NCBI GenBank assembly: GCA_020630275.1
Contig: JAHDBU010000003.1
Location: 1-59,845 of the forward strand
Direction of reading: 5' to 3'
Source of the DNA: Hellea sp.
GTDB taxonomy: Bacteria; Pseudomonadota; Alphaproteobacteria; Caulobacterales; Maricaulaceae
DNA: 59,845 bases
The position numbers were made by a program, and so were the translations under genes. Shown in pieces: positions 5,453 to 26,768 of the stretch. Position 1 is the stretch's first letter. Each line of letters opens with the position of its first letter. Below the pieces are notes generated by a model, which was given only the letters and a program-made list of their open reading frames with translations, did not search any database and was not told the DNA's origin.

Positions 5453-5489
5453 AACCTGTTCGCGCTAAATCAATCTCATGATCAGAGAA

Positions 5490-5960: not shown

Positions 5961-6361
5961 TCAGGTTGGAAAGATTCGCCTGCCTGCTGAACGGCTTCGG
6001 GCAGGGGAACAGACCAGATTTTTTCCAGATTATAAAAGGCGCGCACCTCGGGGCGGAATATATGCAGAATAACGTCGCCAATATCCACGAGGACCCAGTC
6101 ATTACCTGTCTGGCCTTCGACACCCAAAGGTATATGTCCTTCTGCCTTGAGCTCTTTCAAGACATAGTCAGCCAGCGCACCAACATGACGGTTGGAGCGG
6201 CCACAGGTCACGATCATCACATCAGCCACAGAGGACTTGCCTTTGATATCAATCTTGATGGTGTCTTGAGCTGAGTTTTCGTCCAGGACTTTCAGGACGA
6301 GTTCCGTGACGATCCGGGTTTGGTCATCTTCGGTAAGTTCCTTTTTGGAACTTGCGGGCAT
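5957..6361 (-). CDS. rsfS: Ribosome silencing factor
   Basis: 134 aa; motifs DIKGKSSVADVMIVTCGRSNRHVGALADYV and WVLVDIGDVILHIFRPEVRAFYNLEKIW; conserved nadD-rsfS-rlmH order. Confidence 0.9.
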   Translation of the reverse strand: MPASSKKELTEDDQTRIVTELVLKVLDENSAQDTIKIDIKGKSSVADVMIVTCGRSNRHVGALADYVLKELKAEGHIPLGVEGQTGNDWVLVDIGDVILHIFRPEVRAFYNLEKIWSVPLPEAVQQAGESFQPE

Positions 6362-6439
6362 TGTTTTAGTCAGGATTTATCTCCATTATGTCTGACAGGA
6401 CCATGGTAACATGGAAAAATTTACAAATCTACTACCGTT

Positions 6440-7027
6440 CTACTTTGTCTTTCGCGCCGCGCGAATAGCCGACGATGACTGAGAATTCATAGGCGGGGTC
6501 AGATAGCACCAGGCGGGCGCTTCACAATATTTCAGGATATCTGCCCGCGCCTCTGGCAGACGGTAATCCCTATAGATTTGCGCCGCTTTGCCGGTTCGGG
6601 CCCGGATAGCAGAATAATTCTTTCCTGGTCTGGCGATGATGGCAATGGGCACAGTTTCTACGATAGACCGCCAATTCTTCCACTGGGGGAGTTGCAGGAA
6701 ATTATCCGCGCCCATTAAAAAGACGAAATTGGTTTTGGGCCATTTCTGCCGCGCCAACTGCAGCGTATCTACCGTATATTGCGTACCAAATGCGACCTCC
6801 ATGTGGGAAATGCGCATGGAATAGGGTAGGCCGAGCGCCCGCACTGTATCAACGCGACTTTCATAGCTGGGCTGCTCCGGCTTGAGAGGGTTTTGCGGGC
6901 TGACCATCCACCAAATTTGATCCAGATCCAGAGCGCGCAATGCCGTATTGGCGACATGCATATGCCCGTCATGGGCCGGGTTAAAAGAGCCGCCAAACAG
7001 GCCTATGGAAAGACCTTCATAGTTCAT
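6440..7027 (-). CDS. nadD: Nicotinate-nucleotide adenylyltransferase
   Basis: 195 aa; GLFGGSFNPAHDGH nucleotidyltransferase motif and a C-terminal ISSSAIR-like motif (SSSAIRA); 4-nt overlap with proA. Confidence 0.9.
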   Translation of the reverse strand: MNYEGLSIGLFGGSFNPAHDGHMHVANTALRALDLDQIWWMVSPQNPLKPEQPSYESRVDTVRALGLPYSMRISHMEVAFGTQYTVDTLQLARQKWPKTNFVFLMGADNFLQLPQWKNWRSIVETVPIAIIARPGKNYSAIRARTGKAAQIYRDYRLPEARADILKYCEAPAWCYLTPPMNSQSSSAIRAARKTK

Positions 7028-8291
7028 TTGGGGCGAATATGTCCCTGGCCGTGGACCAGATATTTATAAGTGGTGAGATGCTCGGCGCCAACGGGCCCGC
7101 GGGCATGTAAACGGCCTGTCGAAATGCCGATTTCGGCACCAAACCCAAATTCGCCGCCATCGGCAAATTGGGTTGAGGCGTTATGGACGACGATAGCGCT
7201 ATCGACGGCCTGATGGAAATAGTCAGCCGCATCCTGATTTTCAGTGATGATTGCGTCCGTGTGGCCGCTGCCATAGTGGCTGATGTGATCGATGGCCGCT
7301 TGGAGGTCATCAACAATTTTCACATTGATAATCGCCGCCAGATACTCGGTAAAATAATCGTCCTCTGTGGCCGGTTTGACGGAGGTGTGATAGCTTTGCG
7401 TCGCTTCATCACCTCGAACCTCGCATCCATTTTTCGTCAATGTTTCAATCATTTGCGGCAGAAACTTCGTAGCAATCGCAGCATCAACCAAAAGCGTTTC
7501 CGTCGAGCCACATACGCCGGTGCGGCGCAGCTTGGCATTCATGACGATTTCCTTGGCCATATCCAGATTAGCGTCCGTATGGACATAGCTATGGCAAAGC
7601 CCTTCGAGGTGGGCGAGCACTGGCACGCGGGCATCGCTTTGCACCCGGGCAATCAGGCTTTTCCCGCCCCGGGGAATGATCATATCGACCGTATTATCAA
7701 GCCCGGACAAGAGATGACCAACGGCGGAACGGTCTGTTGTGGGGATGAGTTGAATAGAGCTTTCTGGCAATGCGGATGATTGCAGGGCTGAAACAATAGC
7801 GCGGTGTATGGCCTGATTGGAGTGAAAGGCTTCGGATCCCCCGCGCAGGATACAAGCATTCCCGGATTTGAGACAGAGAGCGCCTGCGTCTGCCGTTACA
7901 TTAGGGCGGCTTTCATAGATCATGCCGATCACGCCAATAGGGATTTTTACCTTGGAAAAGCTTAGCCCGTTCGGCTGTTCCCATTCTTTCTCGACGAGGC
8001 CAACCGGGTCATCCATGGCGGCAATGGCTTCGATACTGCTGGCAATGCCTTCGATCCGGTCTTGATTGAGTGCCAGACGGTCGAGCATAGCCGCAGAGAG
8101 GTCTTTCGCTTTGCCGTTTTCCAGGTCTTCGGCATTGGCCTTGAGAATGGCGTCAGACTGCGACCGGATTTCATCGGCTATTCGCTGGAGAGCATCGGAT
8201 TTGTCCGCCGCACTGGCTAACCCTAAAGCGCGCGCGGCAGCCCGGGCACTTTTCCCGATTATTTTCAATTGGTTATGAAGATTATCTGACA

Positions 8292-8292
<1 letters not shown>
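7024..8292 (-). CDS. proA: Glutamate-5-semialdehyde dehydrogenase
   Basis: 422 aa, collinear with ProA (..NACILRGGSEA.., ..VCGSTETLLV.., ..HGSGHTDAIIT..). Its start overlaps the proB stop (TAATG). Confidence 0.95.
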
Positions 8293-11082
<2,790 letters not shown>

Positions 11083-11100
11083 TTCCGGCTCCATGCAGGG

Positions 11101-11133
11101 AAAAAAGAAGGGAAACCGGCGATCCGATTTCCC
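11101..11133 (-). terminator. Rho-independent terminator/attenuator after rpmA
   Basis: The minus-strand transcript reads GGGAAAUCGG-AUCG-CCGGUUUCCC (10 bp with one G-U) followed by UUCUUUUUU. It lies between the rpmA stop and the GNAT start. Confidence 0.7.
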
Positions 11134-11176
11134 TGCATTATCAGATCGCTGTTGCGACCTGTCTATATTGGGGTCG

Positions 11177-11446
11177 CTATTCTGCGGCGTCCGCGAGCGG
11201 GGCTACAGATACGTAAGTTCGTTTGTTGCGTTTCGTCGCGAACTGCACCTTGCCTTCGGTCAGAGCATAAATCGTATGGTCTTTGCCCATACCGACATTT
11301 GTGCCTGGAAAGAACTTGGTACCGCGCTGGCGTACAATAATATTTCCTGGGATGACGGCTTGGCCGCCGAATTTCTTTACGCCGAGGCGTCGGCCAGCAC
11401 TATCGCGACCGTTATTGGATGAACCACCTGCTTTTTTATGTGCCAT
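11177..11446 (-). CDS. rpmA: 50S ribosomal protein L27
   Basis: 89 aa; [29 protein letters not shown].. is the hallmark L27 N-terminus. Confidence 0.97.
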
Positions 11447-11457
11447 CTCTAGTCTCC

Positions 11458-11769
11458 TTAGCCTTTAATCGCCGTAATTTTGACGACCGTCTCATTTTGG
11501 CGGTGACCGCGCTTACGACGATAAGTCTGACGACGCTTTTTCTTGAAGACAAGAACCTTGTCGCCTTTGCGTTGTTCGAGAACTTCGCCTTTTACTTCTG
11601 CCCCTTTAACGAGAGGCTCTCCGATTTTGACCTTGGCGCCTTCGCCACAGGCCAATATATCCTTAAAGGAAACGGTCTTTCCCTCTTCAGCGTCAAGTTT
11701 CTCAACGATGATGATATCGTCCTTAGCAACTTTATACTGTTTACCGCCGGTCTGAATGACTGCAAACAT
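11458..11769 (-). CDS. rplU: 50S ribosomal protein L21
   Basis: [14 protein letters not shown].. is the canonical L21 start, and AAGGA lies upstream of the ATG at 11769. The track ORF begins 10 codons earlier at 11799. Confidence 0.95.
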
Positions 11770-11811
11770 TTGTTTTTCCTTATCTTTTTGCGCGCCCAAT
11801 GGGAACGCTTG

Positions 11812-11859
11812 AAAAAATTGAGGCCGCCTAGATGTGCCATATTACACGAGTCAGCGGCC
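11812..11859 (-). promoter_or_regulatory. Possible rplU 5' leader stem-loop (attenuator-like)
   Basis: In the minus-strand leader, GGCCGC...GCGGCC closes an imperfect hairpin of about 38 nt followed by UCAAUUUUUU. It lies between the predicted promoter and the rplU start. Confidence 0.3.
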
Positions 11860-11871
11860 AATTCGTCGGTC

Positions 11872-11899
11872 TATATACAGAGCGGGTCTGTAAAGTCAA
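11872..11899 (-). promoter_or_regulatory. Candidate sigma70-type promoter for rplU-rpmA
   Basis: The minus strand reads TTGACT-N16-TATATA about 100 nt upstream of the rplU ATG and downstream of the giant-gene terminator. Confidence 0.45.
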
Positions 11900-11936
11900 C
11901 GGTTCCGAAAATTATCCTGAAAATAGTTCTTCCAAG

Positions 11937-11961
11937 AAAAAACCCGCGCTCAAGGCGCGGG
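11937..11961 (-). terminator. Rho-independent terminator of the giant repeat gene
   Basis: The minus-strand transcript reads CCCGCGC-CUUGA-GCGCGGG followed by UUUUUU, about 25 nt after the TAA at 11985. Confidence 0.75.
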
Positions 11962-11984
11962 CTGAAACTTAATCTGGTTTGGTC

Positions 11985-14900
11985 TTAGTTACCGAGCCAG
12001 CGACCGATGACCTGGCCAGCGGAGTTGATAATGTTTCCGCTTCCGTCAACGCGACCGATAACAGTACCGGTTGAGCTAACGACAGATCCGTCAGCGCGGA
12101 GCGAGTAACCGCCTGCGCTTCCGAGGCTCAGTGAGCTACCGCCGGATGACAGGGCACCTGAGGCTGCGCCTGCTGCACCGCCTGTTGACAGTGAGCCGCC
12201 GCTGAAGCCGGAGATACGACCGATGATCGCTCCAGAAGAGGTAACGATGTTACCGCTGCCGTCGACAGTACCAATCACGGCACCTGAAGCATTCAGGACC
12301 TGACCAGAGCTGGTGATCGTGTAAGTCGCACCATTGATGGTCATTGTCTGGCTACCGCCGGAGATGGTTCCGCCGGATGTACCTGTCGCTGGGAAGCCAC
12401 CAACAGTTGATCCGATAGAGCCGGAGTAGCTACCACCAGAGCCGCTGACCATTGAGCGCCAGTCAACACCCAGTCTCTCAACAGTTGTCAGGGTCAGACC
12501 ACCGGTAGAGAGGCCTTTCGCACGCTGATACTGCTCGACTGCAAAGTAGGTCTGCTGACCCAGGCGGCCATCAATGGCACCTGTGTAGTAACCTTCTGAC
12601 TTCAGAGCCCGCTGGATGGCGGAGATCACTGTTGTGGTCGCGTTCGCTTCACAGAGAACCTGACGCCACTCAACCTTCTCAGGTGAAAGAGCGTTCCGCT
12701 TAGTGATTGAACCGTACTCAGCCGGGATAAGGATCGACTCTGTGCGAGCTGGTTCAACCATCTTCGTCACTTCGATAGTGTCGTAGACAGCAGGGACCAG
12801 ACGACGTTCCATACGAGGTGTTCCGTCAACGACGCGGCGAGTTACCTGCTTGGTAACGGCCGGGATGACGCGCTCCTCTGTACGGGCCGGTGTCTTAACG
12901 ACCTGACGTGAGACCTGCTTCGTGATTGCTGGGATAACTTTCTCAGCAGTACGGGCCGGTGTTTTCACGCGACGGCGAGTCTCTGTCTTAGTGACAGCCG
13001 GGATGACCTTCTCGACAGTCCGTGCCGGTGTCTTAACGACGCGGCGTGAGACCTGTTGAGTGACAGCCGGTACCGGACGCTCGGAGGTCGATGCCGGTGT
13101 CTTAACGACACGACGTGAGACCTGTTTCGTGACCGCTGGGATGACACGCTCAGTTGTTGCAGCTGGTGTCTTAACAACACGACGCTGAACTTGCTGAGTG
13201 ACAGCCGGGATCACTTTCTCACGAGTCTGGGCCGGGGTCTTAACAACCTGACGGCTGACAGTCTTCGTAACAGCTGGGATCACCTTCTCGACGGTACGAG
13301 CTGGCTCTTTCACAACGCGGCGAGTGACCTGCTTAGTGACAGCTGGCACAGCGCGCTCTTGTGTAGAAGCCGGTGTCTTGACCACGCGACGGGAGACTTG
13401 CTTGGTGACCGCTGGGACGACCTTCTCGACAGTGCGAGCTGGTGTCTTAACGACACGGCGAGTTTCCTGCTTTGTGATTGCCGGGATCACACGCTCTTGC
13501 GTCGAAGCTGGTGTCTTGACCACGCGACGTGTCTCAACCTTCGTGACGGCCGGTACGACCTTCTCGACGGTACGAGCCGGTGTCTTAACAACACGACGTG
13601 TCAACTGCTGTGTTACAGCTGGGACAGCGCGCTCTGTTGTAGAGGCCGGTGTCTTAACAACGCGACGTGAAACTTGCTTGGTCACAGCTGGGATCACCTT
13701 CTCGACGGTGCGAGCTGGTGTCTTGATGCGACGGCGAGTTTCCTGCTTTGTGATCGCCGGGATGGCTTTCTCAACAGTGCGAGCGGGCGTTTTAACAACA
13801 CGACGTGATACCTGCTTAGTTACAGCCGGGATCGTCCGCTCTCTGGTCGCTGCCGGTGTCTTCACAACGCGACGTGTTTCCATCTTAGTGACAGCTGGAA
13901 TGACACGCTCTGTTGTAGAGGCCGGTGTCTTAACAACGCGACGTGAGATCTGCTTGGTGACGGCCGGGATGACCTTCTCCACAGTCTGTGCCGGTGTCTT
14001 AACGATGCGGCGAGTTTCCTGCTTTGTGATCGCTGGAACAACACGCTCTTGCGTTGCAGCCGGTGTCTTAACAACACGACGGGAGACCTGCTTCGTGACA
14101 GCTGGGATCACCTTCTCGACAGTGCGAGCCGGTGTCTTAACAACACGCTGAGTTTCCATCTTAGTCACAGCTGGGATGACACGCTCTGTGGTTGCAGCCG
14201 GTGTCTTAACGACACGGCGTGTAACCTGCTTCGTGACAGCCGGAATGACTTTCTCGACGGTACGGGCCGGTGTCTTGATGACACGACGCGTTTCCATCTT
14301 CGTCACAGCTGGGATTGCCTTCTCGACAGTACGCGCTGGCGTCTTAACGACCCGGCGAGAAACCTGCTTGGTCACAGCTGGGATCACCTTCTCGACGGTG
14401 CGAGCTGGTGTCTTGATGCGACGGCGAGTTTCCTGCTTAGTGATCGCTGGTACAGCGCGCTCTTGCGTTGCGGCTGGTGTCTTAACGACGCGACGAGAAA
14501 CCTGCTTGGTTACAGCTGGAATAACTTTCTCAACTGTGCGGGCAGGGGTCTTAACGACACGGCGAGTTTCCTGCTTAGTGATAGCTGGAACAACACGCTC
14601 TTGCGTTGCAGCTGGTGTCTTAACGACACGGCGCGTAACCTGCTTTGTAACAGCCGGAACAGTGCGTTCCTGGGTCGCTGCAGGCGTTTTCACAACACGG
14701 CGAGTTTCCATCTTAGTCACAGCCGGAATGACACGCTCTTGCGTTGCAGCCGGTGTCTTAACGACGCGGCGAGAAACCTGCTTGGTGACCGCTGGGACAA
14801 CCTGCTCAACGGTGCGAGCTGGTGTCTTAACGATACGGCGAGTTTCCTGCTTCGTGATGGCCGGAATGACCTTCTCAACAGTTGCCGCTGGCTTATCAAC

Positions 14901-17900
14901 GACACGACGCGTGATTTGCTTCGTGACAGCTGGGATTGTCCGCTCTTGCGTTGCGGCTGGTGTCTTAACGACACGACGCTTACGCATTTGCGTGATGGCC
15001 GGGATGACCTTCTCGACAGTCCGTGCTGGCTCTTTAACAACGCGGCGAGAAACCTGCTTGGTCACAGCTGGGATCACCTTCTCGACGGTGCGAGCTGGCG
15101 TCTTGATGCGACGGCGAGTTTCCTGCTTCGTGACAGCCGGAATGACACGCTCTTGGGTCGCAGCTGGCGTCTTAACAACGCGGCGCTGAACCTGCTGCGT
15201 GACAGCTGGTATGACCTTCTCAACAGTACGAGCAGGAGTCTTAACGACACGGCGTGTCTCTTGCTTCGTAACAGCTGGGATCACCTTTTCGCGAGTTTGA
15301 GCCGGTGTATCTACGACACGGCGCGTAACCTGCTTCGTGACAGCTGGGATAACTCTCTCAACTGTACGGGCCGGTGTTTTCACGCGACGGCGCTGTTCCT
15401 GCTTGGTGACAGCCGGTATCGCACGCTGTGTTGTTGACGCTGGTTGGTCAACAACGCGACGTGTGATTTGCTTTGTCACAGCCGGAATGACTTTCTCAAC
15501 TGTACGAGCCGGTGTTTTCACGACACGTCGTGAAACCTGCTTCGTCACAGCCGGGATAACCTTCTCGACAATGCGGGCTGGTTCAGCAACCTCAGTGACT
15601 GTGTAAGAGCCCATGCGCTGACCGAACTGGCCAGAACCACCGCTGCGTCCGCCACCGTAGTAACGAGAGCCGACACCAGCATTGTTGGCATCACGATCTG
15701 CAGCTGCAGCTGCTGTACGTGACATGCCGTCACGATCATCACGACCGTCGCCGTTTCCGTCTACAAATCCGGAAATGACGCTACCAGCAGCTTCTGAGCG
15801 AGACACGACACGGGCCGGTGTCTTAACGATGCGGCGCGTGATTGTATCTGTCACAGCTGGGACCGGGATCTCGCGTGTTGAGGCTTCACGGTCAACGACA
15901 CGACGTGTGATCGTCTTAGTGACAGCCGGGATACGCTTCTCAACAGTCCGGGCAGGGGTCTTGATGACCTGCTTGGTGATGGTTTTGTATTGAGCCGGGA
16001 TCAGAACACGACAGATAATCTCACCGGTTGGAGAGACAGATGTCTGCGTTGACTCGACGATCCGTTCGTTGACACCGTCAAATACAGTGAACTGACCACG
16101 TGTATTTGTGTTCACGGTACCGGAGGCACGGAACTGACCAGCATTGACCGCTTGAGTCGCTGATTTCCACTCTTCACGAGCTGGAGAAATCAGAACGCGC
16201 TCTGTCTTGGTCTCATATGTTGCCGGAATGACGTCGATGTCGACGGATTCTGGACGAACAACAACTGTCTCGGTGACAGTCTTATAAGAGGCCGGGACAG
16301 CTTCTAGGCGAGTTGATGCTTCCTGAACAACGATTGTCTCTGTGACAGTTTCGTAAGTTGCAGGGATCACAACCAGCTCTTCAGCGGCATCCTTGGCAAT
16401 GTAGCTCTCGTTACGCGTTGTCATTTTTGCCGGAACAGTGACGTACTCGACGCCCTGTGGCTGAACAACAACGGTTTCTGTTACAGTCTCGAACTCAGCC
16501 GGGATCGTTACGAGCTCGGTTGTCGCTTCCTGAACTACAACTGTCTCAGTGACAGTCTTGTAAGTAGCCGGAACAGCGATCAGCTCTGTAGTTGCTTCCT
16601 GGACAACAATAGTCTCTGCGTATGTTTCGTATGTGGCCGGAACTGTCTCATAAGTGACAGATTGTGGCTGTACGACAACAGTTTCAGTGACTGTTTTGAA
16701 TGTTGGAGGAATTGTCACCAGCTCTGTTGACGCTTCGCGTACAACAACAGTCTCAGCGACAGTGTCGTATGTGGCCGGTACGGTAACCAACTCAGTCGAA
16801 GCTTCCTGAACAACGACAGTTTCATTGACGGTCTCGTAAGTCGCCGGAATTGTTACGAGCTCTGTAGAGGCTTCCTGGACAACAACTGTCTCAGTGTAAG
16901 TCTCGTACTCGGCAGGTACAGTCACATAGTCAACACTTTGCGGCTGAACAACAACGGTTTCTGTTACGGTCTCATATGTTGCTGGAACAGTGATAAGTTC
17001 GGTAGTCGCCTCTTGTACGACAACAGGCTCTTCCACTGTTTCAAACGTAGCCGGGATGGTTACCAGCTCGGTTGAAGCTTCCTGAACGACAACTGTCTCG
17101 GTGACAGTTCTGTAGGTTGCTGGAACCGTCACAAGCTCCGTAGAGGCTTCCTGAACAACAACAGTCTCAGTCACAGTATCGTAAACAGGTGGAACTGTTG
17201 TGTAGGTCACAGACTGAGGCTGAACGACAACGGTTTCAGTGACAGTCTCGTATGTGGCCGGAATTGTTACCAACTCAGTCGAAGCTTCTTGAACAACAAC
17301 AGGTTCCTGAACAGTTTCGAATGTGGCAGGAATTGTCACATACTCTGTCGTTGCCGGTTGCACGACGATTGTTTCAGAAACCGTCTCGTAAGTGGCCGGA
17401 ATAGTCACTAGCTCTGTAGAGGCTTCCTGGACAACAACTGTCTCAGTTACGTTCTCATAGACAGGCGGTACAGTTTCGTAAGTCACTGACTGAGGCTGAA
17501 CGACAACCGTTTCGGTCACAGTTTCAAACGTAGCTGGGATGGTAACCAACTCGGTTGACGCGTCCTGAACAACAACTGTCTCTGTGTAAGTCTCATATTC
17601 GGCTGGAACCGTGATGTAGTCGACGCCTTGTGGCTGCACGACGATAGTCTCAGTAACAGTTTCGTATGTGGCCGGAACAGTAATCAGCTCAGTTGTAGCT
17701 GGCTGAATAACAACAGGCTCTTGAACCGTTTCGTATGTCGGAGGAATGACCTCATATGTGACAGACTGCGGCTGAACGACAACAGTTTCTGTGATAGTTT
17801 CGAAGACCGGCGGAACTGTAACTAGCTCAGTCGAAGCTTCTTGAACCACAACAGGGTACTGTTTGGTTTCGTAAGTTGCTGGAATTGTCTCGTAAGCAAC

Positions 17901-19847
17901 AGATTGCGGCTGCACGACGACAGTTTCAGTAACAGTTTCAAATGTCGCTGGGATTGTAACCAACTCAGTTGAAGCTTCCTGAACGACAACAGTCTCGGTG
18001 ACTGTGTCATATACAGGTGGCACAACAACATATTCAACAGACTGTGGCTGAACAACAACCGTTTCAGTGACTGTTTCGAACGTAGCCGGGATCGTCACTA
18101 ACTCTGTTGAGGCCGCTTGAACCACAACAGGCTCTTGAACAGTTTCAAAAGTTGCAGGAACAGAAATGTATTCAGTCGTTGCCGGCTGAACCACAACAGT
18201 CTCAGTTACAGTATCGTAAACAGGCGGCACAGTGACCAGCTCTGTTGAGGCATCCTGTACAACAACTGTCTCTGTGTATGTTTCATACTCAGGAGGTACA
18301 ACAACGTATTCCACTGACTGAGGCTGAACAACGACTGTTTCGGTAACAGTTTCAAACGTAGCCGGGATCGTTACCAACTCAGAAGTCGCATCTTTCACAA
18401 CAACTGTCTCAGTTACAGTCCCAAATTCGGCAGGAATTGTAACCAGCTCTGTTGTTTGAGGCTGAACAACAACGGTTTCAGAAACAGTTTCGAACGTTGC
18501 CGGGATTGTAACCAGCTCTGTTGAAGCTTCCTGAACAACGACCGTTTCCGACACTGTTTCGAACGTTGCCGGGATTGTTTCATAAGTAACAGACTGAGGC
18601 TGAACAACGACTGTTTCGGTTACAGTTTCGAACGTTGCCGGGATAGTAACCAACTCTGTCGAAGCATCCTTCACAACCACTGTTTCAGTCACGGTTCCGA
18701 ATACTGGCGGCACAGTGACCAACTCAGTTGTGGCCTCTTTAACGACCATTGTTTCGGATACTGTTTCGTATGTTGCAGGAATTGTCACCAACTCAGTCGA
18801 CGCGTCCTGAACAACAACAGTCTCAGTTACCGTCTCAAAAGTCGCAGGCACAGTGACGTAATCGACACTCTGCGGCTGGACCACAACGGTTTCGGTAACT
18901 GTTTCATAGGTAGCAGGGATTGTTACGAGTTCGGTTGCCGCGTCTTTCACAACAACAGTCTCTGTGACCGTGTCGTAAACGGGGGGAACGGTTACGAGCT
19001 CGGTCGATGCTTCCTGCACGACGACTGTTTCTGTGTAAGTTTCGTACTCAGCTGGAATAGTTACGTATTCAACAGACTCAGGCTTTACGACGACGGTCTC
19101 TGTCACTGTCTCATATACAGGAGGGATAGTGACGAGCTCAGTCGAAGCTTCTTGTACGACAACAGTCTCGGTTACGGTTCTGAAGGTTGATGATAGCTGA
19201 CCAGCAGATCCGCCTGTTGCGGTAACGCGCACGGCGCTTCTAGCCAACATGGCACCACCGGTGCTGACAACGTTTCCGCTGCTGTCTACGCGACCGACGA
19301 CAATGCCGCCTGGCGCGCTACCGGAGCGGTACACGGCACCGTTGGAACCAATGATGTAAATTGTTCCGCCAACAGAAACAGCGGAAGGATATGACCCGTT
19401 CGCCAAGCGGGCAGCTGCGCCGCGTGCGATGACTGAACCATTTGCGGCGACAATGTCACCGTTGGCGTTGACGCTTCCAATTGAGGAGCCGCCGCCGCCA
19501 CTGCCTGCAGTGGAGACTGTTCCGTCTGGGGAAATATTAAATAGAACACCACCAATTGTTACGGTTGATGGATAACGGTAACCACCAGTTCCGACTGGGA
19601 CGAGTTGATAGGACTCCTCCTGAACCAGAACGCGCTCAGGCACGGTTTCGTAACGTGCTGGGATTTTTCTCAGCTGCGTTGCTTCCGGCTTGATCAGGAT
19701 CTGCTCGGTTGTGGTTTCATAAGTTGCCGGGACAATCACCCGGGCAAAACATTCACCCGGACGCGGGTCACCTGGCGGCAACTCCTGGGCGATGGTCGGT
19801 GCGGTTAGCACCACGGCACTAGTGGCCAGTAATAGAGTACGTTTCAT
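11985..19847 (-). CDS. Giant secreted repeat protein (about 2,620 aa): acidic 23-aa repeat array, basic 23-aa repeat array and a C-terminal peptidoglycan-binding domain
   Basis: Single uninterrupted ORF. The likely start is the ATG at 19847 (MKRTLLLATSAVVLTAPTIAQE signal peptide). Seed motif GECFARVIVPATYETTTEQILIKPE, then 43 acidic and 40 basic units of 23 aa. PG_binding_1-like segment TTVISAIQRALKSEGYYTGAIDGRLGQQTYFAVEQYQRAKGLSTGGLTLTTVERLGV at about 12465..12638. The gene has its own terminator. Confidence 0.85.
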   Translation of the reverse strand: MKRTLLLATSAVVLTAPTIAQELPPGDPRPGECFARVIVPATYETTTEQILIKPEATQLRKIPARYETVPERVLVQEESYQLVPVGTGGYRYPSTVTIGGVLFNISPDGTVSTAGSGGGGSSIGSVNANGDIVAANGSVIARGAAARLANGSYPSAVSVGGTIYIIGSNGAVYRSGSAPGGIVVGRVDSSGNVVSTGGAMLARSAVRVTATGGSAGQLSSTFRTVTETVVVQEASTELVTIPPVYETVTETVVVKPESVEYVTIPAEYETYTETVVVQEASTELVTVPPVYDTVTETVVVKDAATELVTIPATYETVTETVVVQPQSVDYVTVPATFETVTETVVVQDASTELVTIPATYETVSETMVVKEATTELVTVPPVFGTVTETVVVKDASTELVTIPATFETVTETVVVQPQSVTYETIPATFETVSETVVVQEASTELVTIPATFETVSETVVVQPQTTELVTIPAEFGTVTETVVVKDATSELVTIPATFETVTETVVVQPQSVEYVVVPPEYETYTETVVVQDASTELVTVPPVYDTVTETVVVQPATTEYISVPATFETVQEPVVVQAASTELVTIPATFETVTETVVVQPQSVEYVVVPPVYDTVTETVVVQEASTELVTIPATFETVTETVVVQPQSVAYETIPATYETKQYPVVVQEASTELVTVPPVFETITETVVVQPQSVTYEVIPPTYETVQEPVVIQPATTELITVPATYETVTETIVVQPQGVDYITVPAEYETYTETVVVQDASTELVTIPATFETVTETVVVQPQSVTYETVPPVYENVTETVVVQEASTELVTIPATYETVSETIVVQPATTEYVTIPATFETVQEPVVVQEASTELVTIPATYETVTETVVVQPQSVTYTTVPPVYDTVTETVVVQEASTELVTVPATYRTVTETVVVQEASTELVTIPATFETVEEPVVVQEATTELITVPATYETVTETVVVQPQSVDYVTVPAEYETYTETVVVQEASTELVTIPATYETVNETVVVQEASTELVTVPATYDTVAETVVVREASTELVTIPPTFKTVTETVVVQPQSVTYETVPATYETYAETIVVQEATTELIAVPATYKTVTETVVVQEATTELVTIPAEFETVTETVVVQPQGVEYVTVPAKMTTRNESYIAKDAAEELVVIPATYETVTETIVVQEASTRLEAVPASYKTVTETVVVRPESVDIDVIPATYETKTERVLISPAREEWKSATQAVNAGQFRASGTVNTNTRGQFTVFDGVNERIVESTQTSVSPTGEIICRVLIPAQYKTITKQVIKTPARTVEKRIPAVTKTITRRVVDREASTREIPVPAVTDTITRRIVKTPARVVSRSEAAGSVISGFVDGNGDGRDDRDGMSRTAAAAADRDANNAGVGSRYYGGGRSGGSGQFGQRMGSYTVTEVAEPARIVEKVIPAVTKQVSRRVVKTPARTVEKVIPAVTKQITRRVVDQPASTTQRAIPAVTKQEQRRRVKTPARTVERVIPAVTKQVTRRVVDTPAQTREKVIPAVTKQETRRVVKTPARTVEKVIPAVTQQVQRRVVKTPAATQERVIPAVTKQETRRRIKTPARTVEKVIPAVTKQVSRRVVKEPARTVEKVIPAITQMRKRRVVKTPAATQERTIPAVTKQITRRVVDKPAATVEKVIPAITKQETRRIVKTPARTVEQVVPAVTKQVSRRVVKTPAATQERVIPAVTKMETRRVVKTPAATQERTVPAVTKQVTRRVVKTPAATQERVVPAITKQETRRVVKTPARTVEKVIPAVTKQVSRRVVKTPAATQERAVPAITKQETRRRIKTPARTVEKVIPAVTKQVSRRVVKTPARTVEKAIPAVTKMETRRVIKTPARTVEKVIPAVTKQVTRRVVKTPAATTERVIPAVTKMETQRVVKTPARTVEKVIPAVTKQVSRRVVKTPAATQERVVPAITKQETRRIVKTPAQTVEKVIPAVTKQISRRVVKTPASTTERVIPAVTKMETRRVVKTPAATRERTIPAVTKQVSRRVVKTPARTVEKAIPAITKQETRRRIKTPARTVEKVIPAVTKQVSRRVVKTPASTTERAVPAVTQQLTRRVVKTPARTVEKVVPAVTKVETRRVVKTPASTQERVIPAITKQETRRVVKTPARTVEKVVPAVTKQVSRRVVKTPASTQERAVPAVTKQVTRRVVKEPARTVEKVIPAVTKTVSRQVVKTPAQTREKVIPAVTQQVQRRVVKTPAATTERVIPAVTKQVSRRVVKTPASTSERPVPAVTQQVSRRVVKTPARTVEKVIPAVTKTETRRRVKTPARTAEKVIPAITKQVSRQVVKTPARTEERVIPAVTKQVTRRVVDGTPRMERRLVPAVYDTIEVTKMVEPARTESILIPAEYGSITKRNALSPEKVEWRQVLCEANATTTVISAIQRALKSEGYYTGAIDGRLGQQTYFAVEQYQRAKGLSTGGLTLTTVERLGVDWRSMVSGSGGSYSGSIGSTVGGFPATGTSGGTISGGSQTMTINGATYTITSSGQVLNASGAVIGTVDGSGNIVTSSGAIIGRISGFSGGSLSTGGAAGAASGALSSGGSSLSLGSAGGYSLRADGSVVSSTGTVIGRVDGSGNIINSAGQVIGRWLGN
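12822..15581 (-). repeat. Tandem array of 40 x 69 bp (in-frame; basic 23-aa unit PARTVEKVIPAVTKQVSRRVVKT)
   Basis: I counted 40 consecutive 23-aa units in the translation (aa 1428-2347 of the 2,625-codon ORF). The boundaries were checked against the codons at 15579..15581 (Pro) and 12822..12824 (Gly). Confidence 0.9.
16197..19163 (-). repeat. Tandem array of 43 x 69 bp (in-frame; acidic 23-aa unit VVVQEASTELVTIPATYETVTET)
   Basis: I counted 43 consecutive 23-aa units (aa 234-1222). The boundaries were checked against the codons at 19161..19163 (first Val) and 16197..16199 (final Arg of ..ETKTER). Confidence 0.9.
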
Positions 19848-19975
19848 TTCGAAAACCCCCAAACTCTCTTTATTTTAACAATCAACTGCTAGGCACAGCT
19901 ACGTTCACCTTACCTAATCGTAAACGATTTGGCTAGGCGTTAGTTCCTCTTTAAGGAATTAAAATTGAAATTCAA

Positions 19976-20599
19976 TCATTCATCTGCAGTTAGGCGAAAA
20001 GGTCGCCAATGAGACACTTCTGCGGCGTGTAACATCTCTTTATCTCCTCTAGTATCGCCATAGGCGTGATTGATTTTCACTGATCTTGGCGAAAATTCCG
20101 CCAGAATCCGTCTAACTTTGCCTGGACCCCAGACATTCCATCCTTTGATTCTGCCAGTGCAGACCCCATCTACAACCTCTAACTCAGTGGCTAAAATGTT
20201 GTGGATATTATGCCGCTCCCCCCAGGCTCGAAGGTAAGGCGTGATTGATGCACTGCATATATATAAAGACTCTGGGCCTTTTTTTCGTTGTTCTATCTCG
20301 CTCAATGCACCGGGACGAATCAATCCTGGGATGACTGAGTGAGCAAATTTCCGAGCTTTAGACTCGACCTTTGATATGGGTTGTCCTCTGAAAAAACGGT
20401 TGATGACGTGCTTTTTGACGGCATTTCTATCGATCAGCCGGACACCGTACCCAAGGAAGACAGGTAACAGAGCTAAAATACGCCACGTCCACCCCAATGG
20501 ACCGGCATAATACCGCAAAAACAAGGCAAAAGTATCCTTAGTCGTGATCGTTCCGTCAAAGTCGAACACGTTGATTTCTATTGTTTTTGTCGCGTTCAC
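19976..20599 (-). CDS. HAD-IB family hydrolase (phosphoserine phosphatase-like)
   Basis: 207 aa; motif I FDFDGTIT near the N-terminus; C-terminal YGDTRGDKEML (motif IV-like). Confidence 0.7.
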   Translation of the reverse strand: MNATKTIEINVFDFDGTITTKDTFALFLRYYAGPLGWTWRILALLPVFLGYGVRLIDRNAVKKHVINRFFRGQPISKVESKARKFAHSVIPGLIRPGALSEIEQRKKGPESLYICSASITPYLRAWGERHNIHNILATELEVVDGVCTGRIKGWNVWGPGKVRRILAEFSPRSVKINHAYGDTRGDKEMLHAAEVSHWRPFRLTADE

Positions 20600-20831
20600 A
20601 GGTCCCCTCAGACGCTCGAATCTAATTGTTTTTGTGGGAGCTGGTTAGCGCCCACCTTTAAAAACTCAAGCCCTGAACCGACTCAAAGTTTCCAGCGGAT
20701 TAATTTTACCTATATGAATGAAAGCTGACCGCTTGTTTTTTGAGTCGAATTGTGGATTGTATCTCATGAGTGCTTTACGCCAGTGGGGCGAAAAAGGTCA
20801 TTTAAGTTATTGTAATAATTGGAAAACACCC

Positions 20832-23669
20832 ATGCGCGTAAATTCAAAACTATTTTTTACCGGACTACTTGCCGCGGTGATCTTTGTGTCAGGGTGCAAA
20901 GAAACCAAAACGATCAAGGAGTCTGATTTTTTTCATGAAACAACAGACTTAAAACCTGACACCGGCATAGAATACGGACGGCTTGAGAATGGCTTGAGAT
21001 ATGCGGTCATGCAAAACGCGACCCCCTCCAATACAGCGACGCTTTTGATGCGCTTTAACACGGGGTCCATCAATGAGGCTGATGATGAGCGTGGACTGGC
21101 CCATTTCCTGGAACATATGGCCTTTAACGGTTCAGAAAACGTCCCTGAGGGCGAATTAATACCGCGACTCGAGAAGTTTGGATTGGCGTTTGGTGCGGAT
21201 ACTAATGCCTCAACCGGGTTTTTTGAGACGATTTATCAGCTCGAATTGCCAGAAGTGAACGATGATATCATCAATGAGGCTCTGTTTATTATGCGGGAAA
21301 CAGCGTCAAATCTGCTTTTGGAGCCCGAGGCCATCGAAAACGAGCGGGGAGTGATTCTGGCTGAGAAGCGCGCCAGAACCAGTCCGGCCTTTCATGCCTC
21401 CATTGCCCAGCTCAATTATTTTATGGATGGGACTTTGATCCCAGACCGTCTGCCAATCGGAACTGAAGACACGATTAAGTCTGTCACACCCGAACAATTC
21501 CGGGCCTTTTACGAGGGTTATTACCGTCCGGAAGATACTTTCATCGTGCTCGTCGGGGATATGGAAACGGCCTATGCGAGCAATAAAATCTCGGAATATT
21601 TCAGAGATTGGACCGCAAAAGGTGTGGATAAAAGTATCCATGAGCTAAAGGTTCTTGGGCCCAAACCTTTTGAAGCGACCTATTACTCCGACCCGGAAAT
21701 CCAAACCACTGTTTCGATCAACGTCATGAGTGCACCCGATCTGAGGGCTGATAAAAAGGCCAATCGCAAAGATTTCTACGTCGAGGCCCTGGGCAATCGG
21801 ATTTTGTCCCGCCGACTGGCCGCCATTGCCCAAACAGAGGAAGCTCCCTTTATCTCTGCCGGGGCCAGCACGTCGACGACCTACGATGCTATTCGCATTT
21901 CCTCCGTCAGCCTGTCCTCACAACCAGAAAACTGGGCGCAGGCTCTGGCGGCCGGAGAACAGGAGCTCCGAAAGGCGCTCGAATTTGGCTTTACTCAGGC
22001 CGAACTCGACGAACAGATTGCCAATTCCCGACAATCCCTAAAAGTTGCCGTCGAGCGCGCGGAGACGCGACGAACGTCCGGCTTGGCGCGTAGTATTCTT
22101 GGGAACTATTCCGGAGACGTTGTCATGACGAGTCCGGAATTTAACCGGGATTTCTTCGAAGAATATGCTGACACGATTACGCCGGAGCAAGTGCACGCTG
22201 CGTTCAAGGCGTATTGGGCAGGCATAGAAGAACCGCAAATATATATATCTACATCGGAAATTATCGAAAACCCGGAAGAAGCTATCAAGCAGGCTTACAG
22301 AGATAGCCAATCAGTCGGTGTCCAGGCTAATGAAGTCGTTGAAACCGCAGAATTTGCTTATCGGAATTTCGGCGAGCCAGGCAAGGTTAAGAGCCGTGTA
22401 AACGTAGAAGACGTAGATTTCACCCAGATTGAATTTGAAAACGGTGTGCGGCTTAATTTGAAAAAGACACCTTATCAGAAGGGGGTTCTTTCTGTGGATA
22501 TGGCCTATGGCAAAGGCGAATTGTTTTTAGAGGATGACGGAACACCAACGCGTTGGTTGCTGGGTAACGCCTTATCTTTGGGTGGGCTAAAAGCTCATTC
22601 CGCTGATGAGCTCAGAACAATCATGGCCGGAAAAAGCGTTGGCGTTGGCCATAATATGGGCACCAGGCAAATGTTTATGAATGGCGGAACAACTATGGAG
22701 TTCCTGCCTGAGCAGCTAAACTTAATGATGGCCTATTATCTGGAACCTGGGTTCCGGGACGAGGCTAAGGCTCGCTATGATAAGTGGATTAGTTCGTTCT
22801 ATCCGACGCTCGATTCAACTCCGGGCGGTGTCGCGTCGCGCGACCTGGAGCGCCTGATTCGTTCCGATAATCCGCGTTTTGGCATACCATCCGAAGAAGA
22901 TCTACGTGCCGCCAGCTTGGAAACCGCATCAAGCTGGCTAGACGACAGTAAAAGAGGCGAGTCTATCGAGATTGGAGTTGTCGGAGATATCGAAATTGAC
23001 ACGGTGATTGCGGAAGTGGCTCGGACATTTGGTACGCTGCCCAAAGTTAAAGCGGCTGCCCCCGTGGCGCCTGCTGATAAAATCAAACTGAAATTTGCAA
23101 ATGCCACAGATCGTCCGACAGTTCTGTCCCATGCTGGGGAGGACAATACGGCATTGCTACGGGTATACTGGCCGTCTCCGGACGGTCGCGATGATATGGT
23201 CGTCCGTCGCATGAACTTGCTTAATTCCATGTTTAAACTGCGTTTGGTAGAGGTTCTGCGAGAAGAGTTGGGCACGTCTTATTCGCCGTCTTCATTTGTT
23301 GTTTCGCCGCGCACCTATCCTGAATTTGGCTATCTGGCCGCGTCACTCGAAGTGAACCCGGAGGATATTACTAAGGCCGAAGCCCGCATCCACACCTTGG
23401 CCGAAGAATTTAAAAATGGCGAGTTTGATGAAGATCTATTTGAGCGGGCCATCACGCCGATTCGCGAAAACATAGAAGAATCTCTTGAAAGCAATGCCTA
23501 TTGGATGAACATTATTGCCCGTTCACAGACTGACCCCGAAATCGTGGCCCGTCATCGGCGTCGGCATGATGCTTATCAGGAGATGAAGCTCGAGGATCTA
23601 AAGCCTCTGGGCAAATCTGTGTTTAATCGTGACAAAGCCGTGGTTTATCATATCGTGCCTTCGCCATAA
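20832..23669 (+). CDS. M16 family zinc metallopeptidase (pitrilysin-like), lipoprotein
   Basis: HFLEHMAFNGSE inverted zinc motif. About 945 aa with duplicated M16 halves. The start is taken at MRVNSKLFFTGLLAAVIFVSGC (lipobox), not at the track start 20718. Confidence 0.85.
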   Translation: MRVNSKLFFTGLLAAVIFVSGCKETKTIKESDFFHETTDLKPDTGIEYGRLENGLRYAVMQNATPSNTATLLMRFNTGSINEADDERGLAHFLEHMAFNGSENVPEGELIPRLEKFGLAFGADTNASTGFFETIYQLELPEVNDDIINEALFIMRETASNLLLEPEAIENERGVILAEKRARTSPAFHASIAQLNYFMDGTLIPDRLPIGTEDTIKSVTPEQFRAFYEGYYRPEDTFIVLVGDMETAYASNKISEYFRDWTAKGVDKSIHELKVLGPKPFEATYYSDPEIQTTVSINVMSAPDLRADKKANRKDFYVEALGNRILSRRLAAIAQTEEAPFISAGASTSTTYDAIRISSVSLSSQPENWAQALAAGEQELRKALEFGFTQAELDEQIANSRQSLKVAVERAETRRTSGLARSILGNYSGDVVMTSPEFNRDFFEEYADTITPEQVHAAFKAYWAGIEEPQIYISTSEIIENPEEAIKQAYRDSQSVGVQANEVVETAEFAYRNFGEPGKVKSRVNVEDVDFTQIEFENGVRLNLKKTPYQKGVLSVDMAYGKGELFLEDDGTPTRWLLGNALSLGGLKAHSADELRTIMAGKSVGVGHNMGTRQMFMNGGTTMEFLPEQLNLMMAYYLEPGFRDEAKARYDKWISSFYPTLDSTPGGVASRDLERLIRSDNPRFGIPSEEDLRAASLETASSWLDDSKRGESIEIGVVGDIEIDTVIAEVARTFGTLPKVKAAAPVAPADKIKLKFANATDRPTVLSHAGEDNTALLRVYWPSPDGRDDMVVRRMNLLNSMFKLRLVEVLREELGTSYSPSSFVVSPRTYPEFGYLAASLEVNPEDITKAEARIHTLAEEFKNGEFDEDLFERAITPIRENIEESLESNAYWMNIIARSQTDPEIVARHRRRHDAYQEMKLEDLKPLGKSVFNRDKAVVYHIVPSP

Positions 23670-23776
23670 AAAAGCAAAAAGCCGCGACAATTAGGGCCGG
23701 ATTAGGCTAAATTTAAGTCTTCGCATTCAGATCAACCCTGTTTATACCAAAGCAAATCAGTCAATAAGGTTGTCCC

Positions 23777-24556
23777 ATGGTTCAGCTTACGCTCCCAAAG
23801 AACTCGAAACTCTCCAAGGGTAAGGATTGGCCAGCCATTGCTGGTGGAAAACGGCTGAAAACATTCAAAATTTACCGTTTTGACCCGGCAGACGGGCAAG
23901 GACCTCGCTGGGATACCTACCAGATCGATCTGGATGAATGCGGGCCTATGGTGTTGGACGCTTTGATTAAGATTAAAAACGAAGTTGATCCGACGCTGGC
24001 ATTCCGCCGCTCATGCCGCGAAGGGGTTTGTGGTTCCTGCGCCATGAATATTGGCGGACGAAATACATTAGCTTGCACCAAAGGCATTGATGAAGTCGGC
24101 GGCGGCACCATCGCCATCAGCCCGCTGCCACACATGCCAGTTGTCAGAGACTTGGTTCCTGATCTTTCGCAATTCTATGCCCAATACGCGGAAATCCAAC
24201 CTTGGCTACAAACCAGCGAAGCTGAACCCAAGGGCGAACATCAACAAACTATCGAAGACCGTGAAAAGCTCAACGGCCTCTACGAATGTATTCTCTGCGC
24301 GTCCTGCTCAACGTCATGCCCGTCTTATTGGTGGAACGGGGACCGATATCTCGGTCCAGCGGCACTCCTACAGGCGTATCGCTGGCTGATCGATAGCAGA
24401 GATGATGCCACGAATGAGCGCCTGGACAGACTGGAAGATCCGTTCAAGCTTTATCGCTGTCACACAATTATGAACTGCGCCAATGTTTGCCCAAAGGGCT
24501 TAAACCCGGCCAAAGCCATTGCAGAAGTCAAGAAGATGATGGTGGAGCGGGCCTAG
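23777..24556 (+). CDS. sdhB: Succinate dehydrogenase iron-sulfur subunit
   Basis: 259 aa; three Cys clusters ([15 protein letters not shown]; [12 protein letters not shown]; [17 protein letters not shown]). Confidence 0.95.
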
Positions 24557-25803
24557 GTCACTTTATAGCGCTTGAGGTATTTCGGGTTATCCCATTGTTT
24601 TTCTTTGATTATCTTGTTAACGGCCTGCAAGACATTCCAAATATCGATATAACGGATATAAAGTGGCGACAGACCAAACCTAATCGTTGATGGCGTTCTA
24701 AAATCCGTTTGAAACCCTTGATCATGCAGTGCCCGTGAAATGGCGTAAGCGTTTTCAAGCTCCAAGCTGACATGGCCACCGCGATGGGCTGCTGTTTTGG
24801 GAGATGAGATACACAGCCCCATACTCTCCGCCATGGCGACACACAAATCACCCAGCTTTCCAGATTTTTCCTCCAGATCATGGATATCTACACCCTCAAA
24901 ACAGCTCAGAGCGCCCCCTAGAGCGCTAAGAGAGAGAATAGGCGGCGTGCCTGAGGCAAAACGCGAAGAATTGTCTGTGGGGGCGTATATGGGCTCAAAT
25001 GAGAAGGGCCGGGCATGTCCCATCCATCCGGGGAGCGGCGTCGTCATATCGCTCAACAAACTCTTGTGAACATAAAGAAACGACGGGGCGCCTGGACCAG
25101 CATTCAGGTATTTATAGGTGCAACCTGTTGCCAGGCGAGCCCCGACGGCTTGCATGTCTAAGGCAACAACACCTGTGGCGTGGGATAGATCCCAGATAAT
25201 CAGAGTGCCAGATTTAGCAGCGGCTTCTTCATAGTCTTTCATATTGACCCGGTTGGAATTCCGAAATCCGACCGCGCTTTTGATATAAATACCGCCGGAA
25301 TTCAGCGCTCGCTTTTCATCTCCCGTAGTGACCCTATTGCAGGATATACCTTTTATCCTGGCGATACTGTCCGCCATGTACTGATCCGTCGGGAATTCGG
25401 TCTCATCCACATAAATAACCTTCGCATTGACCAAGGGGAGTGCGGCGATGGCCAATTTGAATATATTGGTCGAGACCGTATCCGTGACCATGACCTCCTT
25501 GGGATGGGCTCCAATTAACCCAGAAATCTTGGCCCCTAATGTCTTGGCCATGTCGAACCAGCCTGCCGAATTCCAGGATCCGACCAAACCGTTTTTCCAA
25601 TCCTCTTCCAGGCATCTTCTAACGGCATCGATGGAGGCCATACTCGACGGGCCGAGTGAATGCCCAACGAGATAAACTACATCTTCTTGCAGGTGAAAAA
25701 GTGATCTCTTATCGGCGAGGGGATCGGCTGCATCCAGCGCCAGCACGGCGTCACGATTTTTCGGTATTTCCATAGTTTTCTTTTGCCTCACGGCCAGAGA
25801 CAT
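24553..25803 (-). CDS. kynU: Kynureninase
   Basis: Collinear with bacterial KynU as I remember it ([50 protein letters not shown]). The true start may be Met11 at 25773 (MEIPKNRD..). Confidence 0.9.
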
Positions 25804-25817
25804 GGCTAGTAGGATTT

Positions 25818-26768
25818 ATGGTTTCTTTGTTCGTCAGATTACTGCCATTGATTGCGCTCAGCGGATGTGCACCTCAAACTTCTGATTTAGAGGCTGCAAG
25901 CAAATCCACTCAACAGGATGTCATCGTGGAAAAACAGATCATGACATGGCCGGATTTGACAAACCAGCCGCTTCCCGAGCCAACCACATCCATAACCTAT
26001 AGTGATTTGCCCACGGCTATTGTCGATGTCTGGCTGCCCGATAACCAGGGGCCGCATCCTGTAGTCTTAATGATCCATGGCGGTTGCTGGCAAAAGTCAA
26101 TCGCGGACCGATCGCTTATGAATTACATGGCCGAAGCCCTGCGCAAGAATGGGATGGCGGTCTGGAATGTCGAATATCGCGGCGTAGATGAGCCAGGAGG
26201 CGGATATCCGGGCACGTTTGAAGATGTAGCCATGGCAGGCAATGCGCTCTCTGAGCACGCCTTAGAACTCAATCTGGATTTGAACAGGGTTGCGGGTTTT
26301 GGACATTCGGCGGGAGGGCATCTGATCACTTGGTATGCGGGATCCGTAAATCTGCCCGAATTTACCGAAATTAATGCTCGGCGAGAGACACCTCTCAAAG
26401 GCATTATCAATTCCGGGGGCTTGGCCGATTTGGTCGCTTCCGAACCAATAACTTTGGCATCTTGCTTGGCAGAAATCCGACCGCGTTTGACAGGGCGGGC
26501 TAGCAAGACCCGACCAGACCCATATGCGGACACCTCAAGTGACCGTCTTTTGCCAACTGGCGTGGCCATATACAACGTCAACGGCGAGAAAGATAAGATA
26601 GCACCTGAGGAACTCGGGATGGCATATACAGAGGCTGCGACTATCGCTGGTGACAATGCCGCTTATGCCCATGCGGCCGGAGAGGGGCATGTTGAATTGA
26701 TTGCCCCGGGAACGAAAGCTTTTGAATTGCAAGTCGAAATCTTAAAAAGCCTGTTGATGCCTACATGA
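25818..26768 (+). CDS. Alpha/beta hydrolase (esterase/lipase fold), lipoprotein
   Basis: 316 aa; lipobox LIALSGC at residues 11-17; HGGCW oxyanion motif and GHSAGGH nucleophile elbow. Confidence 0.75.
   Translation: MVSLFVRLLPLIALSGCAPQTSDLEAASKSTQQDVIVEKQIMTWPDLTNQPLPEPTTSITYSDLPTAIVDVWLPDNQGPHPVVLMIHGGCWQKSIADRSLMNYMAEALRKNGMAVWNVEYRGVDEPGGGYPGTFEDVAMAGNALSEHALELNLDLNRVAGFGHSAGGHLITWYAGSVNLPEFTEINARRETPLKGIINSGGLADLVASEPITLASCLAEIRPRLTGRASKTRPDPYADTSSDRLLPTGVAIYNVNGEKDKIAPEELGMAYTEAATIAGDNAAYAHAAGEGHVELIAPGTKAFELQVEILKSLLMPT

Follow-up and report, generated by a model that had tools for sequence, protein, structure and literature searches.

Lpp, Pal and OmpA are outer-membrane-to-wall tethers or periplasmic spacers that bind peptidoglycan non-covalently. 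For TatA, a 'charge zipper' hairpin model has reportedly been put forward, said to be due to Walther et al. in 2013. Beta-hairpin and beta-solenoid repeat proteins (CW_binding_1, curli CsgA and FapC) are made of strand-turn-strand repeats of about 20–23 residues, and PG_binding_1 domains anchor SleB and SltB2 to the wall. Here we describe a gene from Hellea sp. that invites comparison with these systems. It occupies positions 11985..19847 on the minus strand of a 59,845-nucleotide stretch of contig JAHDBU010000003.1, called the window below, and encodes a protein of 2,620 amino acids (aa), referred to as the giant, in which an acidic and a basic array of one 23-residue repeat are followed by a PG_binding_1 domain. 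Complementary charge ladders closing a hairpin would be common to TatA and the proposed structure of the giant, and strand-turn-strand repeats of similar length are common to the giant and CW_binding_1, CsgA and FapC. None of the four is matched by the giant in sequence or in fold, and its pairing is proposed to lie between two separate arrays of one chain.

The closest relatives are short 'peptidoglycan-binding (domain-containing) proteins' of 300–835 aa, for example MEL6504247.1 from a Pseudomonadota metagenome-assembled genome (MAG), proteins of Maricaulis sp., Limnohabitans sp. (B9Z38_14320) and Acidiferrobacterales, and OmpA-domain versions from Flavobacteriia. They share with the giant the 23-aa unit, three Cys/Trp caps, the order N-terminal (A) half, hinge, C-terminal (B) half, PG_binding_1, and a basic-biased B half. 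They differ from it in having 4–10 units per half, compared with about 45 in the giant, in a charge split that is mild (mean −2 and +12) or absent, and in having no Gly-rich modules; many are lipoproteins with a coiled-coil leader, and none has been characterised. Judged by these traits the giant is a hugely expanded member, and an extreme variant, of an uncharacterised family of putative envelope proteins that is present in databases but has not been described.

We consider it probable that the giant is a Sec-exported, peptidoglycan-anchored structural protein whose arrays pair within one molecule as a charge-complementary beta zipper, forming a periplasmic rod on the cell wall. Support for the fold topology is moderate, and for the presumed cellular function low. 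The alternatives weighed below are, from the most to the least likely, a mesh formed by pairing between molecules, two arms acting independently, a surface adhesin and an assembly artefact.

Two arrays of one repeat unit with opposite charge

The reading frame is intact, as the first-pass annotation of the window had stated, with no internal stop codons (Table 1). Tandem Repeats Finder reported 69-bp arrays with super-periods of 138 and 276 bp at 12844–15570 and 16461–18830, confirming the periodicity claimed for both arrays. In the protein, [IV]P[AP] anchors recur every 23 residues exactly, without insertions or deletions in either array. The acidic array consists of 43 units, the number first counted, with 155 Asp/Glu and 18 Lys/Arg residues. 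The basic array has 225 Lys/Arg and 69 Asp/Glu in 42 units; the 40 originally proposed are well formed, and two degenerate ones have to be added. Further units are found outside the arrays, three after the N-terminal GECFARV and three basic ones within the hinge. The exact anchor spacing and the net charges of −137 and +156 bear out the description of a single scaffold, charge-inverted and present in near-equal number.

The charge pattern within units differs in part from that first described. Acidic units contain 2–5 Asp/Glu each, mostly 3–4, and not 4–6, and at least one Lys/Arg, supposedly almost never found there, is present in 12 of the 43. The proposed replacement of Glu by Lys/Arg is seen position-for-position at Glu18 and Glu22 and fails at the other two of the four sites, Glu5 and Glu9. 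The basic unit carries its remaining basic residues on either side of Glu 5 and 9, at positions 3, 7 and 11.

AlphaFold2 models, which were used for secondary structure and confidence scores, were all-beta. Each unit was predicted to comprise two strands, the first of 7 and the second of 12 residues, each followed by a turn, with a predicted local distance difference test score (pLDDT) of 80–90; the spacers were predicted to be disordered.

Units of both arrays can also be sorted into subtypes, which follow the same mirror-symmetric order: blocks of 3, 3, 4 and 4 units, then 8 (or 12) doublets, then blocks of 4, 4 and 3. This order was seen in the window (12696..15593 and 16197..19163) and in the ortholog loci L002, L003, L006 and L023–L025. 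In the long orthologs extra units are inserted in the central doublet region of both arrays. Whole-array duplication was considered as the origin of the shared pattern and rejected, as acidic unit i and its basic counterpart show no unit-by-unit similarity. The DNA of the acidic and basic arrays is only 37% identical.

A widespread family of short proteins

A query from outside the arrays matched more than 1,800 proteins of 300–760 aa over 89–97% of its length. The family has thousands of members in Pseudomonadota, Bacteroidota and Acidobacteriota. The short relatives mentioned in the first-pass annotation were indeed found in large numbers, fused to PG_binding_1 or OmpA. Read from the N-terminus, family members show a signal peptide or lipobox followed by G-E-C-[YF]-A and acid-leaning units, then W-K-x-G...T-G-E-I-M-C and basic units, and finally E-W-R-x-V-L-C-E-x-N ahead of PG_binding_1. 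The giant contains the three cap motifs in this order (G-E-C-[YF]-A; W-K...G-E-[IV]-[MI]-C; E-W-R-x-[VI]-L-C-E-x-N), 23-residue units with the [IV]-P-A-x-[YFT] anchor in both halves, and A and B halves of equal size, another family trait, with 43(44)/42 units in the window. In the smallest members a loop of only about 10 residues joins the halves. Members are named only 'hypothetical' or 'peptidoglycan-binding protein' in the databases, and the 23-aa unit also occurs in OmpA-, CAP-, YfbK/vWA- and DUF900-containing proteins.

The C-terminal domain of the giant matches PG_binding_1 (PF01471) with 35.7 bits, above the Pfam gathering cut-off of 23, as had been expected near the C-terminus. It resembles the peptidoglycan-binding domain of SleB in sequence, and that of a homologue resembles SltB2 in fold. 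The model of this homologue, P0068, shows three helices after the final Cys, i.e. the three-helix bundle of PG_binding_1, and Foldseek aligned it with the SltB2 peptidoglycan-binding domain (7qvd) with a root-mean-square deviation of 1.6 Å over 58 columns. Foldseek searches with both AlphaFold2 models matched only the peptidoglycan-binding domain. No model in Pfam or NCBIfam covers the 23-aa unit, no sequence or fold match to it was found in the PDB, and literature searches by motif and keyword found no description of the family or the giant. Apparent matches to UFL1_C, DUF3659 and Bflower_2 (Pfam) and to HxsA/SleB (NCBIfam) were rejected as indicating the family, being repeat-composition noise or the peptidoglycan-binding domain only. 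Full-length homology matches, to alpha-2-macroglobulin-like proteins, were low-complexity word matches and uninformative.

Several groups of relatives have features of their own. Proteins of a ~800-aa class, which is abundant in Burkholderiales among other groups (Limnohabitans, Hydrogenophaga etc.; P0307–P0422, P0010 and P0129), have at the N-terminus an additional domain of about 150 aa that is conserved and rich in Cys, HGNVGYDTAAECDAAV...GACD...QQCDNNF. YfbK/vWA-type membrane proteins of marine Alphaproteobacteria (P0132, P0138, P0156, P0160, P0161 and P0193) contain n basic units, a DGS turn and about n acidic units, and in P0160 insertions in the basic and acidic blocks face each other. 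From their sequences these blocks look like miniature versions of the putative hairpin of the giant. Gene neighbourhoods of short members showed no conserved operon. The gene for P0068, a short member of the alphaproteobacterial type (L020, 3998..4738), is divergent beside a YkuD-like gene (L,D-transpeptidase, a weak match) and DAP epimerase, a possible cell-wall context that is not conserved in the Maricaulis locus L021.

The two halves vary together in length and sequence

Across 93 family proteins, the lengths of the A and B halves were correlated with r = 0.98. Modules are present as 1+1, 2+2 or 3+3 per protein, and the halves of the ~800-aa class range from 283/283 to 297/287 aa.

Covariation between the halves was calculated as mutual information with average-product correction from 118 aligned members of the ~800-aa class, corresponding to an effective number of sequences (Neff) of 53. 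Of the 25 top inter-half pairs, 13 lay on the line i+j = 878 ± 3, where 0.62 were expected, and 17 of the top 50 fell in one 7-wide window, compared with 4–5 in row-permuted controls. Antiparallel pairing is marked by a constant i+j, and the covariation places the halves of these proteins antiparallel and in register. The line also includes the seed Cys (column 158) and the final Cys (column 723), whose sum is 881, indicating that the first and last Cys are juxtaposed. In the 2+2 and 1+1 classes, for which fewer sequences were available, 11 of the top 40 pairs lay near the Cys+Cys sum of the respective class. No covariation peak was seen at a separation of 23, contrary to parallel solenoid stacking, in what is a weak test.

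The covariation gives a facing rule in which the position in an A unit and the position in a B unit add up to 17–22 (mod 23). In the giant the two best charge-complementary antiparallel registers, of 23 possible, have sums of 17 and 21, inside this window. The register predicted by the topology places the last three acidic units opposite the three inner basic units, and in 7/7 orthologs no other reverse offset gave a better anticorrelation of charge per unit (r = −0.29 to −0.68). Both agreements are modest checks. Per-unit charge correlation and subtype order were tried as tests of parallel against antiparallel arrangement and discarded as not decisive, the pattern being palindromic.

Giant orthologs and the coupled growth of both arrays

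When genomes and metagenomes were scanned with the non-repetitive hinge, seven orthologs of 2,500–3,055 aa were found, intact and of the same build. Their sources are Hellea balneolensis DSM 19091 and a Hellea MAG, another two Maricaulales/alphaproteobacterial MAGs and, for the remaining three, contigs of marine metagenomes. Charge-split arrays, whose recurrence had been raised as a point to check, thus recur throughout this set. Each ortholog contains exactly three Cys, all at cap positions, and Cys33 is invariant both among the giants and across the family. The positional orthology of units is preserved between species.

Under one counting scheme five orthologs have arrays of 44/42 units and the other two have arrays of 52/50, and in no ortholog were the acidic and basic counts mismatched. 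Outside the repeats L024 is 92% identical to H. balneolensis, yet each of its arrays is eight units longer: the acidic array contains a clean additional block of 8 units in its centre, and the basic array likewise has 8 more in its own. These additions do not consist of identical copies. L002, which is distant, also has 52/50 units. Since L024 is close to H. balneolensis and shares its counts with the distant L002, the coupled +8/+8 change arose at least twice; and with arrays only 37% identical in DNA, a single recombination event cannot account for both additions. The suggestion of the first-pass annotation that the arrays zip together is favoured by this joint change in length and by the antiparallel, in-register covariation of the homologues.

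These results also bear on whether the arrays pair at all. They might be independent, with the acidic arm serving as a cation (Ca/Mg) sink or binding a basic polymer, the basic arm binding peptidoglycan or anionic envelope polymers (lipopolysaccharide, holdfast or capsule polysaccharide), and their equal lengths accidental. This would suit the extreme net charges and the facing table, in which there are more basic residues than acidic partners for them. It would also suit the habit of the Hellea clade (Robiginitomaculaceae, Maricaulales), whose members are prosthecate marine bacteria with a surface-attached lifestyle. Accidental equality fits poorly with coupled +8/+8 changes in two lineages without a mismatch, with the correlation of half lengths in the family and with antiparallel covariation in three family classes, and we regard independent arms as distinctly unlikely.

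An exhaustive phmmer search with aa 620–1819 against 1.8 billion representatives returned no protein longer than 1,044 aa, which suggests that giants are limited to the Hellea clade. The claim that an 83-unit, charge-split version is undescribed stands: we found no paper on one, and no giant turned up outside this clade. Neither of the two large protein collections contains the giants, and exact look-up fails too. Only fragments occur there, namely P0009, from a 57.5-kb ENA contig and ending in a frameshift, and the C-terminal pieces P0017, P0067 and P0106. Gene calling or assembly evidently breaks such giant genes.

Because repeats are error-prone in assembly, the arrays themselves could be suspected of being an assembly or annotation artefact, and the frameshifted P0009 and the lack of giants in protein libraries might be quoted in its favour. 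Within the gene, no exact repeat exceeds 74 nt and the DNA identity between units is just 62–66%, which indicates that the array is old and little prone to assembly collapse. Intact reading frames were obtained from seven independent assemblies, and units keep their positional orthology between species. An artefact is thus scarcely credible.

A proposed hairpin of paired arrays on the cell wall

In the structure we favour, the A and B halves would be antiparallel and paired unit-for-unit into one long hairpin, the acidic array running out and the basic array running back with complementary charges facing. The hinge (W...GE[IV][MI]C) would form the far turn. At the open end the first Cys (GEC-F/Y-A) and the last (EWRxVLC) would be adjacent, making a Cys33–Cys2399 disulphide staple probable, and PG_binding_1, directly after the last Cys, would fix this end to the sacculus. 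Of the Gly-rich modules, the N-terminal spacer and the C-terminal tail would lie at the base and spacer 2 near the tip. With about 43 units per half, or about 51 in some lineages, an almost exclusively Glu-bearing A side and a B side rich in Lys/Arg, the hairpin of the giants would be a rod tens of nanometres long with dozens of salt-bridged rungs. Equal unit numbers would be needed because rungs pair across the hairpin. The alternation of 12- and 7-residue strands may leave free five-residue edges on the long strands that the partner array could fill.

Several observations weigh against this structure. The covariation comes from shorter homologues, with Neff of 19–54 and a simple mutual-information statistic, and it cannot separate intramolecular from intermolecular antiparallel pairing. 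The mirror symmetry of the subtype and charge patterns means that they do not discriminate between parallel and antiparallel arrangements; the subtype pattern is itself imperfectly mirrored in L023 and L025, and its register lies one unit from that given by net charge. The AlphaFold2 model of a giant segment had a predicted template modelling score (pTM) of only 0.36. The seven orthologs represent only two count classes, and most of the assemblies are short-read. The third Cys is left partnerless in the hairpin. Charge polarity is slight in several short members, so the family fold does not depend on charge to hold it together.

The insensitivity of covariation to chain identity leaves room for pairing between molecules, in which the acidic array of one would lie on the basic array of another and the protein would polymerise, on peptidoglycan or extracellularly, into a gel-like mesh or fibres. 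Mirror-symmetric subtypes would permit pairing in either orientation, and the long Gly-rich spacers could serve as flexible joints. The ~10-residue loop between the halves of the smallest members favours a simple hairpin, however, as does the position of both terminal Cys on the same register line, and a network would need equal unit numbers less strictly than a closed hairpin. We therefore think such a mesh unlikely.

If the intramolecular hairpin is correct, its two ends lie at the same end of the rod, and the rod itself would not span from membrane to wall as the tethers do. Some short members resemble Lpp, Pal and OmpA in carrying a lipobox, a coiled coil or OmpA_C. The giant is unlike OmpA and Pal in this respect: its signal peptide contains no Cys and hence no lipobox, and OmpA_C (PF00691) was not matched in a Pfam scan. 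PG_binding_1 makes up only 2% of the protein, which has no catalytic domain. The first-pass annotation had called the protein secreted; a Sec-type signal peptide agrees with export, and the periplasm is the default destination.

The size and repetitiveness of the giant, and the attached lifestyle of its host clade, bring to mind surface adhesins exported past the outer membrane, such as LapA, Bap and SiiE. Neither Pfam nor NCBIfam detected RTX, Ig-like, autotransporter or sorting-signal domains, and we found no C-terminal secretion signal or beta-barrel and no transporter or other secretion-system genes nearby. PG_binding_1 and the Sec signal peptide point instead to the periplasm, and an adhesin is very improbable. 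Curli or Fap traits were likewise missing, with no Pfam match and no dedicated secretion genes among the neighbours.

The role we favour for the zipper hairpin, tentatively, is structural: attached to the wall, it would serve the envelope or stalk of these prosthecate marine bacteria as a strut, scaffold or salt-sensitive spring. As a feature of the whole family, an antiparallel A/B zipper in which repeat numbers are coupled appears to be novel. Whether it amounts to a new fold principle is close to an even call, and we lean slightly to caution. On that principle two arrays of the same two-strand unit, both in one chain, would interlock antiparallel and could lengthen only by adding to both; the Hellea rod, with about 43 to 51 rungs, disulphide-stapled, salt-bridged and anchored to peptidoglycan, would act as a strut, ruler or salt-sensitive spring of the envelope or stalk. 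Were this true, thousands of proteins from several phyla labelled only 'peptidoglycan-binding protein' would gain a structural explanation. There would be a new extensible beta architecture, its length genetically set by two coupled repeat arrays, and rare natural evidence of repeat-number co-evolution within one gene. The giant would be relevant to envelope mechanics, in particular to the spacing and stiffness of the periplasm or stalk in bacteria without Lpp, and as a natural block polyampholyte of defined length it may interest designers of protein materials. A practical warning is that such genes are missing or fragmented in large protein catalogues.

Features of the locus and neighbouring genes

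The features of the gene are collected in Table 1.

Table 1. Landmarks of the giant gene, with positions in the window
Feature	Position	Strand	Basis
Whole coding sequence, 2,620 aa + stop codon	11985..19847	-	Open reading frame, translation
GGGGG, likely ribosome-binding site, 8 nt upstream of ATG (19847)	19856..19860	-	Read from sequence
Signal peptide, aa 1–20 (MKR + hydrophobic core + TIA|QE), no lipobox	19788..19847	-	Judged by eye
N-terminal cap GEC33FARV + 3 units, aa 31–100	19548..19757	-	Translation, anchor spacing
Gly-rich spacer 1, aa 101–228, GxVIGRVDxxGNIV-type motifs	19164..19547	-	Translation
Acidic array, 43 units of 23 aa, aa 229–1217, net −137	16197..19163	-	Tandem Repeats Finder, anchor and charge counts
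Trp cap EEW1227K + hinge turn, aa 1218–1270	16038..16196	-	Translation, ortholog comparison
Second cap GEIIC1279RV + 3 inner basic units, aa 1271–1339	15831..16037	-	Anchor spacing, ortholog comparison
Gly/Asp-rich spacer 2, aa 1340–1418, predicted disordered (pLDDT <50)	15594..15830	-	Translation, AlphaFold2
Basic array, 42 units of 23 aa, aa 1419–2384, net +156	12696..15593	-	Tandem Repeats Finder, anchor and charge counts
C-terminal cap NALSPEKVEW2394RQVLC2399EA	12645..12695	-	Translation, family and ortholog comparison
PG_binding_1 domain, aa 2408–2459	12471..12626	-	Pfam hidden Markov model; match to SleB peptidoglycan-binding domain
Gly/Ser-rich tail, aa 2464–2620, GxVIGRVDxSGNI motifs	11988..12458	-	DUF3659 and Bflower_2, both below cut-off
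Terminator-like GC-rich hairpin then T-run, 22 nt past the stop codon	11941..11963	-	Sequence

The hairpin and T-run past the stop codon agree with the terminator assigned to the gene, and rplU, as had also been noted, and rpmA follow directly downstream. The neighbours of the gene are those for a HAD hydrolase, an M16 peptidase and rplU-rpmA-obg. The order HAD hydrolase, giant gene, rplU, rpmA, GNAT, obg is common to the four orthologs checked, and Obg of the window is 84% identical to that of the Hellea MAG. A scan of the window (1..59845) with Rfam found no family reaching its gathering score, and this includes the rplU leader that lies beyond the 3' end of the giant gene.

GxVIGRVDxxGNIVxxxGxxI modules (19164..19547 and 11988..12458) flank the repeat arrays and differ in copy number between orthologs; they match DUF3659 and Bflower_2 below threshold only. 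Several long open reading frames (up to 462 aa) are present on the plus strand inside the basic array, at 13191..15437, and resemble shadows of the repeat rather than genes.

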